Source: Escherichia coli
Lineage (GTDB): Bacteria > Pseudomonadota > Gammaproteobacteria > Enterobacterales > Enterobacteriaceae
DNA length: 64,000 bases
Strand: one strand, 5' to 3'
NCBI RefSeq assembly: GCF_046105845.1
Contig: NZ_CP151004.1
Program-made: the position numbers and the translations under genes
In this document: in pieces, positions 26,362 to 29,405 of the stretch
Position numbering within the stretch: the first letter of the stretch is position 1
Layout: the number at the start of each line of letters is the position of its first letter
The notes under the pieces: model-generated
What the model was told of the DNA's origin: nothing
The model's database searches: none
The model's input: only the letters and a program-made list of their open reading frames with translations

Positions 26362-27000
26362 ATGCCCGGGCGCTTTGAACTAAAACCAACCCTGGAGAAA
26401 GTCTGGCACGCGCCGGACAATTTTCTCTTCATGGACCCGCTGCCGCCGATGCATCGTCGGGGGATCATTATTGCCGCCATTGTATTGGTGGTCGGATTTC
26501 TGCTTCCATCTGATGATACGCCCAACGCGCCGGTGGTGACGCGTGAAGCGCAGTTAGATATTCAGTCGCAATCACAACCACCGACAGAAGAACAGCTGCG
26601 GGCGCAATTAGTCACGCCACAAAATGATCCTGATCAGGTGGCTCCGGTCGCTCCAGAACCAATACAGGAAGGCCAGCCAGAAGAGCAGCCGCACCCCCCC
26701 CAAACGCAACCATTCCAGCCAGATAGCGGAATTGATAATCAATGGCGCTCTTACCGTGTCGAACCCGGTAAAACGATGGCACAGCTGTTCCGCGACCACG
26801 GGCTGCCCGCTACCGATGTCTATGCAATGGCGCAGGTAGAAGGCGCGGGTAAGCCGCTGAGTAATTTGCAAAACGGGCAGATGGTGAAAATCCGCCAGAA
26901 CGCCAGCGGCGTGGTGACGGGCTTAACCATTGATACGGGGAATAATCAACAGGTCCTGTTTACCCGTCAGCCGGATGGCAGTTTTATTCGCGCGCGGTAG
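26362..27000 (+). CDS. ytfB: OapA/LysM-like domain cell-division protein YtfB
   Basis: Start set at [10 protein letters not shown] (212 aa), with AGGAGG at 26351-26356. Recognised as YtfB. Confidence 0.88.
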
Positions 27001-27091
27001 ATGAAGGGTCAACCAGAAGCCAGCTAAGGAGCGTCTCTTTGATGACCTTACGTCTGGCTTCCAGTGCCTGGGGTGAAACCATACTGATATG
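26984..27091 (-). pseudogene. ytfA: ytfA 3' fragment, separated from its 5' part by the IS insertion
   Basis: Joining 28840 to 27091 continues the ytfA frame: ...LGLVY|[35 protein letters not shown]. The 35 codons end at TAA 26984-26986. Boundary uncertain by a few nt. Confidence 0.55.
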
Positions 27092-27260
27092 TTGACATCC
27101 TCCACGCCCTGAAGGACGTGGATCCCTGCTACGTTCAGGCTGTCGCCTGAATCATTTCGGTGGGTTCCTGCTTCAACGAGCGGCCTGACTGCACCATCTC
27201 TCCACAGGCAAGAACGGCGTGCCCCGCCGCTAAAATGTTACGAGCGCCGTTTACATCGGC
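27076..27260 (-). ncRNA. Predicted omega-RNA (reRNA) of TnpB: scaffold from the tnpB 3' end plus RE, guide from flanking DNA
   Basis: Inferred by analogy with characterised TnpB systems; there is no direct sequence proof of a transcript. The putative 16-nt guide is CATATCAGTATGGTTT (27091 down to 27076, minus strand). Confidence 0.4.
27102..27121. repeat. RE subterminal imperfect hairpin
   Basis: CCACGCCCTGAAGGACGTGG: CCACG/CGTGG plus CC/GG stems, TGAA loop, C/A mismatch. Same architecture as the LE hairpin. Confidence 0.85.
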
Positions 27261-28343
27261 GTTCGCTGTATATCCACATGCCTGGCATCTGAATTGACTT
27301 TGTGACAGGCGATTTTCTTTCGCTGTATGACCACAGCACGCGCAACGCTGGCTTGTGTACGCTGGCGGAACAGCAAGCACCTGACCGCCACGCCAGAGCT
27401 GCTTGTACTCAAGCTGGCGGCGCATTTCATACCAGCCCTGATCCTGTATCGAACGGTTTAAACCTGATTTTGCCCGGACATTGCGCCCCGGCTGGCTGAC
27501 CGTACCCGCTGCTGACTTTGACATGTTGCTGACCTTCAAATCCTCAATGACTATCATTGCGTGGTTTTTGCTGACGGTCGTTGTGACTTTGTGAAGGTAG
27601 TCCCTGCGGATATTTGCGATACAGGAATGCAGTCGCTGTATTTTGCGTTTCTGCTTCTGCCAGTTGTTGCTGAATTTGACCTTGCGGCTTAACTGTCGCT
27701 GAAGTCTCGCCAGCGTCTTCTGGTTTTTCTGAAAACTGTTTACAGGCCCAAAGACTGTGCCATCTGACAGCGTGGCGAGTTTAGCCACGCCAGCATCCAG
27801 CCCGACCATTGATGCTGAAGGGTGAACCGGAGTTGATACTTCATTTTCAGTCTGAATACTGATGTACCACTTACCGCAGGACTGGCTGACAGTGACATTT
27901 TTCACAACACCCGTGACCTGACGGCTATTCCGGTAGCGCATACAGCCAAGTTTCGGCAGAAAAATACGGCTGTTTTCCTGATCGAGCTTAACGCCCTGCG
28001 GGTAGCGGAATGCATCATTCTGTCCCCGCTTTTTGAATCGGGGAAAAGCAGCCCGCTTCTGGAAGAAGTTTTTGTAAGCCCGCTCAAGGTCTTTCAGTGA
28101 CTGTTGCAATGGCTGTGACGGGGCATCTTTAAGCCATTGCGTTTCAGTGGCATTTTTCCACTCAACCAGCCAGGAAGCCATTTTCCCGTAAGGGATGTAT
28201 TTATTACCGGCCTCATGATTCTCATTCTGAAGCGCCAGAGCACGATTGAAAACGAAACGACATGCGCCTGCGAAGCGCCTCATTTCACACTCCTGTTGAC
28301 CACCTGGTCTTAACTGGAATTTAAATGCCTGTAATCGTTTCAC
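27135..28343 (-). CDS. tnpB: TnpB (IS605 OrfB family), putative RNA-guided DNA endonuclease
   Basis: 402-aa ORF with a GTG start. RuvC-like motifs GLDAG (D183), IVIEDL (E267) and NADVNGARN (D363). Zinc finger CACC...CQAC (C334/C337, C353/C356). Resembles K-12 InsQ/YdcM as I recall it. Confidence 0.9.
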
Positions 28344-28350
28344 AGGTCAA

Positions 28351-28782
28351 ATGATACTTTGGTCTATGAAAAAAGAAACCGATATCCGGCGTGGAAAGCA
28401 TTGTGTTTTCCTGATGCATGTTCACCTGGTCTTTGTCACCAAATACCGACGCCAGATTTTTGACCATGACGCGAAAGAAAAACTACGCACTTACTTTTCA
28501 AAGGTATGTGCTGATTTTGAAGCTGAACTGGTTGAAATGGATGGCGAACCAGATCACGTCCATTTGTTAATTAACTATCCTCCCAAACTGGCGATATCCA
28601 GTCTGGTAAACAGCCTCAAAGGCGTATCGAGTAGGTGACTGCGACGAGATCGACCAGATATTGCAGTCAGGTATTACTACAAAGGCGTTTTGTGGAGTCC
28701 TGGCTATTTTGCCAGTAGCTGCGGAGGTGCGCCAATATCCGCCATCCGTCAATACATTGAACAACAGCAAACACCTGGTTAG
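28351..28782 (+). pseudogene. tnpA: IS200/IS605 Y1 transposase TnpA interrupted by an in-frame TGA
   Basis: HUH motif HVH (H69-H71) lies in the 95-aa ORF. TGA at 28636-28638. The same frame continues LRRDRPDIAVRYYYKGVLWSPGYFASSCGGAPISAIRQYIEQQQTPG to TAG at 28780-28782. The catalytic Tyr (RQYIE) is downstream of the stop. Confidence 0.8.
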
Positions 28783-28803
28783 GTGGAAAACCGCGCCTTA
28801 TAT

Positions 28804-28823
28804 CCCCGCCCTGAAGGACGGGG
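28804..28823. repeat. LE subterminal imperfect hairpin
   Basis: CCCCGCCCTGAAGGACGGGG. It differs from the RE hairpin at two positions that are compensatory in the stem (A/T versus C/G). Confidence 0.85.
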
Positions 28824-28839
28824 TTTTACGGCGCACTGG

Positions 28840-29055
28840 ATAAACCAGGCCAAGCGTATGCTGGTTGATCAAATAATATCCCCCAAGCGCAGCAATATTA
28901 ATATTCACCTGCAATGGGTCGCTATCTGCCTTAAAAATATTGTGTTTCTTCCCTTCATCCAATAATTCCATTAAATGCAAGTGCGCATGATTAATTTCTA
29001 AGAGACGCTGTGATTTTGCATAATGCACACCTTTACTTTGGTTTTCACTATGCAC
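28840..29055 (-). pseudogene. ytfA: ytfA 5' fragment (TetR-family remnant) fused to IS-derived codons
   Basis: The 85-aa ORF (28798-29055) begins at GTG as [14 protein letters not shown]. Its last 13 codons ([13 protein letters not shown]) are read from the IS LE. The frame stays open upstream to a stop at 29182-29184 with no start codon. Confidence 0.6.
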
Positions 29056-29405
29056 AATTTTTAAAAACCTGGGATTAGCAATATAATAACCCCAGGTAAA
29101 ATCGATGATTTTTTCAATGGATTTTTGTGGCTGGTTAACCTGCTGATTAACGAACGCACCGATACCGACAGCGTAGAATAATTACATACCGCACAACAAG
29201 AATGTATGGTGTAAGGCGTTGTCAGTCATCTCCCTCCCTGGATGCATCGTTATATCCGTGATGAGCGATTTTTGATATTAATATCTTTCACCATCCGCTA
29301 TCTTCACTACTTCAGAAAACAAACTTATTTTTATTAATATCGATTATTTATTCTGTGCACATTCAGCTGCGATATTTATAAAAAAATTAAACAGGCAAAA
29401 ATACA

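Follow-up and report, generated by a model that had tools for sequence, protein, structure and literature searches.

The tnpA gene of the IS609 copy at the ytfB/TetR site of the window (the whole 64,000-nucleotide stretch of Escherichia coli DNA analysed here, from contig NZ_CP151004.1) is best explained by ordinary decay. We put at about 85% the probability that the copy was vertically inherited at this site and had its transposase gene knocked out by a TTA-to-TGA change, with no programmed recoding. The reading frame and its parts lie in the window as follows:

28351-28782, plus strand: tnpA, whole reading frame (translation)
28351..28638, plus strand: 5' part of tnpA, 95 codons and the premature TGA, with the HUH motif included
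28636..28638, plus strand: premature stop TGA at tnpA codon 96 (alignment with the intact same-locus copies L001 and L002)
28639..28782, plus strand: 3' remnant of tnpA, codons 97-143 and TAG, with Tyr135 in RQYIE kept

Translation of 28351-28785 reads MILWSM...SLKGVSSR, a stop, LRRDRPDIAVRYYYKGVLWSPGYFASSCGGAPISAIRQYIEQQQTPG and a second stop, that is, 95 codons, the TGA, 47 codons and a TAG at 28780-28782. In alignment with IS608 TnpA, the HUH motif (H69-V70-H71, 28555-28563) falls upstream of the TGA and the catalytic Tyr135 (28753-28755, in QYIE) downstream of it. Translation and alignment therefore agree with the sequence-only reading, which had placed an in-frame TGA between HUH motif and catalytic tyrosine next to an open tnpB, and the stop context that it gave, TGA-C, is borne out by the C at 28639 directly after the TGA (local frame GTA TCG AGT AGG TGA CTG). 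With Leu restored at codon 96, the 143-aa read-through TnpA matched Pfam Y1_Tnp (PF01797) at 2e-43 along its full length (positions 1-121 of 121), and aligned with the solved IS608 TnpA (2vhg/2a6m) at about 5e-20. No uninterrupted transposase reading frame in the window copy reaches the catalytic tyrosine. Judged by the Pfam profile and the IS608 alignment, the 95-aa product, which is without the Tyr-bearing C-terminal helix, would not be a complete Y1 transposase, as had been proposed, and would be incapable of Y1 transposition. The 3' remnant is unchanged in six of seven sister assemblies.

Other features of the gene were observed alongside the stop. A private G-to-A change at 28366 converts Val6 to Met and creates a second in-frame ATG in tnpA. 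The two genes diverge from annotated starts (GTG for tnpB on the minus strand, ATG for tnpA on the plus strand) that are separated by only 7 bp (28343-28351), so the promoters must overlap coding regions.

The element that carries tnpA, its ends and the gene that it interrupts were delimited as follows:

27092..28839, minus strand: complete IS609 element (IS200/IS605 family), 1748 bp (empty-site comparison with ATCC 25922; 1-nt ambiguity)
26984..27091, minus strand: 3' fragment of a TetR/AcrR regulator gene (RefSeq annotation of L001 and L002, and the intact ATCC 25922 gene)
about 28840-29130: other fragment of the TetR/AcrR regulator gene, split off by the IS609 insertion
27101..27122: RE subterminal imperfect hairpin, TCCACGCCCT GA AGGACGTGGA (computed on the sequence)
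28804..28823: LE subterminal hairpin, CCCCGCCCT GA AGGACGGGG (read from the sequence)
28840..28843, minus strand: target/TAM tetranucleotide TTAT (ATAA on the plus strand), abutting LE (flank comparison)

The empty-site comparison agrees with the element ends proposed earlier (27091/28840) and revealed no target duplication. On the minus (top) strand of the element the order is TTAT target, LE, tnpA antisense, tnpB sense and RE, and the LE hairpin is nearly identical in sequence to the RE hairpin. The end features of the IS200/IS605 family are all present, with subterminal hairpins, insertion 3' of a fixed short sequence and no terminal inverted repeats. ATAA begins the tnpA-side flank at 14 of 15 distinct IS609 insertion sites; the flanks were clustered on right flanks only, and one group (CTATTTTGCC...) was left out as an internal mismatch. 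Over the whole element, identity to RefSeq copies annotated as 'IS200/IS605-like element IS609 family transposase' and InsQ/TnpB was 97.4-99.0%. IS609 was present in nearly all of 5,426 complete E. coli genomes searched by megablast, at a median of three places per genome, and the ytfB/TetR-site insertion is common to about 2,346 of the 5,426; no second IS609 copy was found within the window.

Relative to ATCC 25922, the insertion splits the TetR/AcrR regulator gene between ytfB and yjfZ. The ATCC 25922 gene is intact and is adjoined by a 3-ketoacyl-ACP reductase gene where yjfZ would be, and these different neighbours indicate that the ytfB-rplI region varies in gene content among strains. 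Directly after yjfZ comes rplI in the window and in the assemblies L138 and L140, and in some sister genomes an IS200-like Y1 transposase gene (135-152 aa) and IS4 or IS1 genes (L137, 4978-5436; L143, 4978-5385; L142, 4906-6213). A 10-nt inverted repeat, GATAAACCAG / CTGGTTGATC, 90% complementary, extends across the junction of the element and the TetR fragment (28839-28870) and is probably a chance match.

The ancestral codon 96 of tnpA is TTA (Leu), and the change is a T-to-G substitution at 28637. Strain 1190 and O157:H7 strain Z866 have intact 432-nt tnpA genes with TTA at this ytfB/TetR site, and the solved TnpA homologues have Leu or Ile at position 96. The sequence-only reading had suggested comparing this codon with other copies for CGA, TGG or TGA; neither CGA nor TGG proved to be the ancestral state. 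The same TGA occurs in IS609 copies at ydcO (in a K-12-like O16:H48 strain and in MG1655), at yedK, at yfeD and in one copy at yeaQ, and PGAP labels these copies 'internal stop'. About half of E. coli genomes, K-12 included, have the TGA96 allele, at several loci and on several haplotypes. Exact 57-mers, distinguished by the base at 28630 and by codon 96, gave the following counts of complete-genome records:

G..TGA (K-12 type): 2,598 records
G..TTA: 2,331 records
A..TTA: 1,759 records
A..TGA (the window's haplotype): 4 records

Among 120 metagenome contigs, the TGA was recovered from 49, which represent several insertion loci. Per-locus allele counts from metagenomes may be distorted because a 1.7-kb repeat can assemble chimerically; the presence of both alleles at most loci in these counts was for that reason set aside as evidence for recurrent mutation.

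At the ytfB locus the TGA is rare but real. Among the approximately 2,346 genomes with the ytfB insertion, none matched window positions 28631-28900 exactly, and the best differed by one base; one such complete genome, OZ197100, has the TGA at the ytfB site on an O157-type haplotype. The best identity between the core flank of the window and a RefSeq complete E. coli genome is 98.7%. The exact 95-aa product was recovered on 28 contigs (NCBI, JGI/IMG, Logan and ENA), including E. coli KTE144, and seven independent assemblies (NCBI, Logan and ENA), 99.1-99.9% identical to the window, encode it at the fklB-ytfB-IS609-TetR-yjfZ locus. Its presence at the same locus in these seven assemblies indicates that the stop is real and fixed in a lineage. 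A sequencing error had been named by the earlier reading as something that would overturn it; given the recurrence of the exact product on 28 contigs and in seven same-locus assemblies, and a change that is a substitution rather than a homopolymer-length error, there is next to no chance that the TGA arose from sequencing or assembly. Among five Escherichia matches in a contig scan with one genome per species, there was no ytfB-locus copy.

A further change, loss of the tnpA stop by TAG-to-CAG at the positions equivalent to 28780-28782, was the sole change in 43 of about 116 sampled IS609 copies. It is also present in nearly all TGA copies and was seen at the loci L003, L005, L006 and L007. 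In copies with CAG the tnpA frame stays open across the left-end hairpin and into flanking DNA; in the window the TAG is retained.

The second gene of the element and its probable RNA lie on the opposite strand from tnpA:

27135..28343, minus strand: tnpB (insQ), RNA-guided endonuclease gene with an open 402-codon frame (Pfam, and alignment with ISDra2 TnpB)
27079..27262, minus strand: probable omega-RNA region, comprising the tnpB 3' end and RE (sub-threshold Rfam matches and position)

The TnpB domains HTH_OrfB_IS605, OrfB_IS605 and Cas12f1-like_TNB (PF12323, PF01385 and PF07282) scored above cut-offs, and the protein aligned with ISDra2 TnpB (8bf8) at 3.4e-52, with residues 3-376 covered. 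This alignment is unbroken through the segments GLDAG, IEDL and ADVNGARN, which are likely to be the RuvC acidic motifs. On the tnpB strand the Rfam matches were all sub-threshold (HgcC, 24.6 bits against a gathering value of 50; RAGATH-18, 29.5 against 44.9; and sot0042), and these matches, which lie across the tnpB 3' end and RE, where an omega RNA would be expected, are probably linked to it. By its position, the guide would probably be read from the flank just beyond RE, at about 27076-27091.

The frame of tnpB is open, and one substitution, W134C (27942), may have impaired its product. Trp is conserved at this position in 102 of 110 IS609 copies; of the four most similar TnpB-type proteins with solved structures, three have it as well (ISDra2, an AI-designed nuclease and 8iaz). 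The change to Cys is common only to the window and its two closest assemblies, L138 and L139. Relative to the nearest TTA-bearing copy, that of strain 1190, the tnpB of the window has four non-synonymous changes, W134C among them, and two synonymous ones. Across IS609 copies retained after identity filters, tnpB had a pN/pS of about 0.35 and tnpA codons 1-95 one of 0.64; codons 97-143, with fewer than 20 polymorphic sites, gave 1.0-1.4 overall and 1.24 when TGA copies were taken separately. Fully intact genes made up approximately 10% of tnpA copies and, under the different filters, about 60-90% of tnpB copies. The earlier reading had taken an inactive tnpA beside an intact tnpB as fitting selection on tnpB independent of mobility. 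This holds at the population level, where tnpA is mostly broken and tnpB mostly open and more constrained, but the window copy alone is a weak argument for it, with its four non-synonymous changes against two synonymous and its W134C.

One of the closest described counterparts is the IS609 copy of K-12 MG1655 between ydcO and ydcL (insQ and a tnpA pseudogene, formerly yncK), which is the same element at about 97.6% identity. Common to both copies are the TTA-to-TGA change at codon 96 with C as the next base, a tnpB open over 402 codons, the end hairpins and the TTAT target. Unlike the window copy, the K-12 copy lies at another insertion site, has lost its stop by TAG-to-CAG, has G at the position of 28630 and differs by four further amino acids absent from intact copies, whereas the window copy keeps the normal TAG and has the strain 1190 haplotype. 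The intact ytfB/TetR-site copies of O157:H7 (WP_000604943.1) and strain 1190 (WP_000604902.1) share the site and flanks of the window copy but have TTA (Leu96) and a full 143-aa TnpA; the tnpA of strain 1190 differs from that of the window by two bases. The K-12 copy was described in a 2010 paper (PMC2891674) as having a stop in its transposase and, because of that stop, not transposing, a statement given there as 'data not shown'. As a precedent for the window copy it also carries other changes, namely V27L, K51N, V106F, A131V and the stop-codon loss.

More distantly, the element resembles IS608 of H. pylori and ISDra2 of D. radiodurans in the order of its Y1 HUH motifs, its subterminal hairpins and its insertion 3' of a short target, and its TnpB is homologous to the RNA-guided nuclease of ISDra2. 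The two genes of IS609 are divergent with closely spaced starts rather than arranged in tandem as in IS608 and ISDra2, and its TTAT target differs from those of IS608 (TTAC) and ISDra2 (TTGAT). The literature searched for IS609 together with TnpB or insQ contained no mechanistic or biochemical study of IS609 transposition. Like the non-autonomous, tnpB-only elements of the IS605 family, the window copy has functional-looking ends, a tnpB and a probable omega-RNA region and no working tnpA; it differs from them in that its tnpA is still full length and interrupted by a single nonsense change, which corresponds to an early stage of decay. The tnpB-only elements rely on a TnpA that acts in trans, and autonomous IS605-family elements appear prone to degradation (Meers et al.).

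With respect to the origin of the TGA in the window copy, the most likely event is gene conversion over a short tract, with another IS609 copy that has the TGA as donor. IS609 copies are mosaics, which makes conversion between copies the likeliest route by which the allele has spread. The same-locus assembly L140 differs from the window at nine positions in 6,288 bp, all of them inside the element and in two tight clusters, and its variant alleles are those typical of other IS609 copies; in L137, 17 of 28 differences lie inside tnpB. The ytfB copy of OZ197100 joins a yfeD-like left part, the TGA included, to an O157-type right part, and the JL05 yeaQ copy, which carries the TGA, is a clear mosaic. 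Some details fit conversion less easily: a G..TGA donor tract would have to start within the 6 bp between 28630 (A in the window) and 28637 and to end before 28742, which leaves a short tract of at most 111 bp, and no donor can be seen any more in OZ197100, where a single IS609 copy is left. We also observed a copy with an identical 95-aa TnpA inside a DUF3251 gene at the nrdR-yajI-tsx locus of an ENA metagenome scaffold (L141, 1742-3494). This yajI copy has a K-12-type 3' end and a tnpB haplotype unlike that of the window, a mixture produced either by conversion or by chimeric assembly.

The alternative of an independent T-to-G change at a mutational hotspot, by which template switching at a quasi-palindrome would re-create the TGA repeatedly without copying between elements, is unlikely. 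The relevant feature is:

28636..28669: short inverted repeat, perfect only with the TGA allele (read from the sequence)

With G at 28637 the two arms of a 7-bp inverted repeat, TGACTGC (28636-28642) / GCAGTCA (28663-28669), become fully complementary; the predicted DNA hairpin energy is -6.9 kcal/mol with TGA vs. -4.2 with TTA, and this speculatively makes the interval a possible quasi-palindrome mutation site. The TGA is found on at least three backgrounds (the K-12 type with stop loss, the A-type of the window with its normal TAG, and the O157-type ytfB copy of OZ197100), and the tnpA of the window differs from the nearest TTA copy at two positions only, with the closest marker 7 bp away. 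Set against this, the hairpin would have a short stem and a 20-nt loop. Nor is site 28637 an outlier, as many other element sites are equally variable within several loci, a comparison based on metagenome contigs that are possibly chimeric; and recombination is suggested by the OZ197100 and JL05 copies, which are mosaic at multiple markers. Gene conversion of an old allele that is common in E. coli IS609 would thus be the most likely source of the TGA in the window copy.

Apart from its origin, the TGA could be a maintained low-activity state, re-created by conversion or at a hotspot, in which either read-through of UGA-C or a 95-aa dominant-negative brake keeps transposition low; we regard this as improbable. 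For the read-through version, UGA-C is reportedly the weakest termination signal in E. coli, a ranking attributed to Poole, Brown and Tate in 1995. Rare decoding of this UGA-C by tRNA-Trp would supply a trickle of TnpA(L96W), so that TGA copies would be attenuated yet autonomous, and the allele could persist, a weakly active transposase being the smaller burden on the host. UGA read-through in K-12 reporters was about 2% at 37 C and 4% at 25 C (PMC10570021). The TGA-C context, the high frequency of the allele at several loci and the lack of any further lesion after the stop in the clade of the window are in line with such leakage. However, the K-12 copy, whose codon 96 is likewise TGA followed by C, reportedly does not transpose (PMC2891674), and TGA copies almost always have the TAG-to-CAG stop loss, some with frameshifts as well, which is a pattern of decay. 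The pN/pS of codons 97-143, at about 1 or higher vs. 0.64 for codons 1-95 and 0.35 for tnpB, albeit on small counts, gives no hint of constraint on the frame beyond the stop. The spread of the allele is accounted for by the mosaic structure of the copies, and Trp may not be tolerated at a position that is aliphatic (Leu or Ile) in solved homologues. A leaky stop taken by itself is improbable. Recoding would lead one to expect a stop conserved in functional homologues, and intact copies have TTA and solved homologues Leu or Ile. Selenocysteine recoding was rejected, the ancestral codon being Leu TTA and an Rfam E-value scan giving no SECIS-type match.

It is very improbable that selection has kept the truncated TnpA(1-95) as a functional protein, that is, as a dominant-negative partner or an end-binding repressor which damps IS609. 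IS608 TnpA is an obligate dimer with active sites built in trans, so a protein retaining the HUH motif and beta-sheet without the Tyr helix could poison dimers. The allele is frequent, and in TGA copies pN/pS is lower for codons 1-95 (0.49-0.64) than for codons 97-143 (1.24). This contrast, however, rests on nine synonymous and 15 non-synonymous sites vs. one and four, most of these polymorphisms are common to TTA copies, and other copies have earlier stops (E62* and Y76*) and frameshifts.

Under ordinary decay of a vertically inherited insertion, the TTA-to-TGA nonsense change at codon 96 would leave a 95-residue product with the HUH motif kept and the Tyr135 helix gone. By homology and by the K-12 precedent, the window copy would be unable to excise or integrate alone. 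Since its ends and tnpB are in place, it may represent a potential non-autonomous element that could move only with a TnpA made elsewhere; mobilisation in trans, by the TnpA of other copies, occurs in IS200/IS605 elements (Meers et al.). The earlier proposal that the element is immobilised is thus supported in cis but not in trans, as both hairpins are intact and members of the family are mobilised by the TnpA of other copies.

The tnpA of the window is an ordinary IS609 pseudogene, and its nonsense allele, already widespread, annotated and described for K-12, is not new. The case matters little beyond annotation, for which the right label is IS609 tnpA pseudogene, with Leu96 changed to an internal stop and tnpB open. 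As TnpA is intact in the ytfB-site copy of most genomes, the lineage of the window may have lost one source of IS609 TnpA, as far as can be seen from the window. The survey of E. coli IS609 indicates that most copies combine a broken tnpA with an open, more constrained tnpB. This pattern fits the published view that IS605-family elements drift toward tnpB-only, trans-dependent forms, and gene conversion between copies can spread a knockout allele among IS609 copies.
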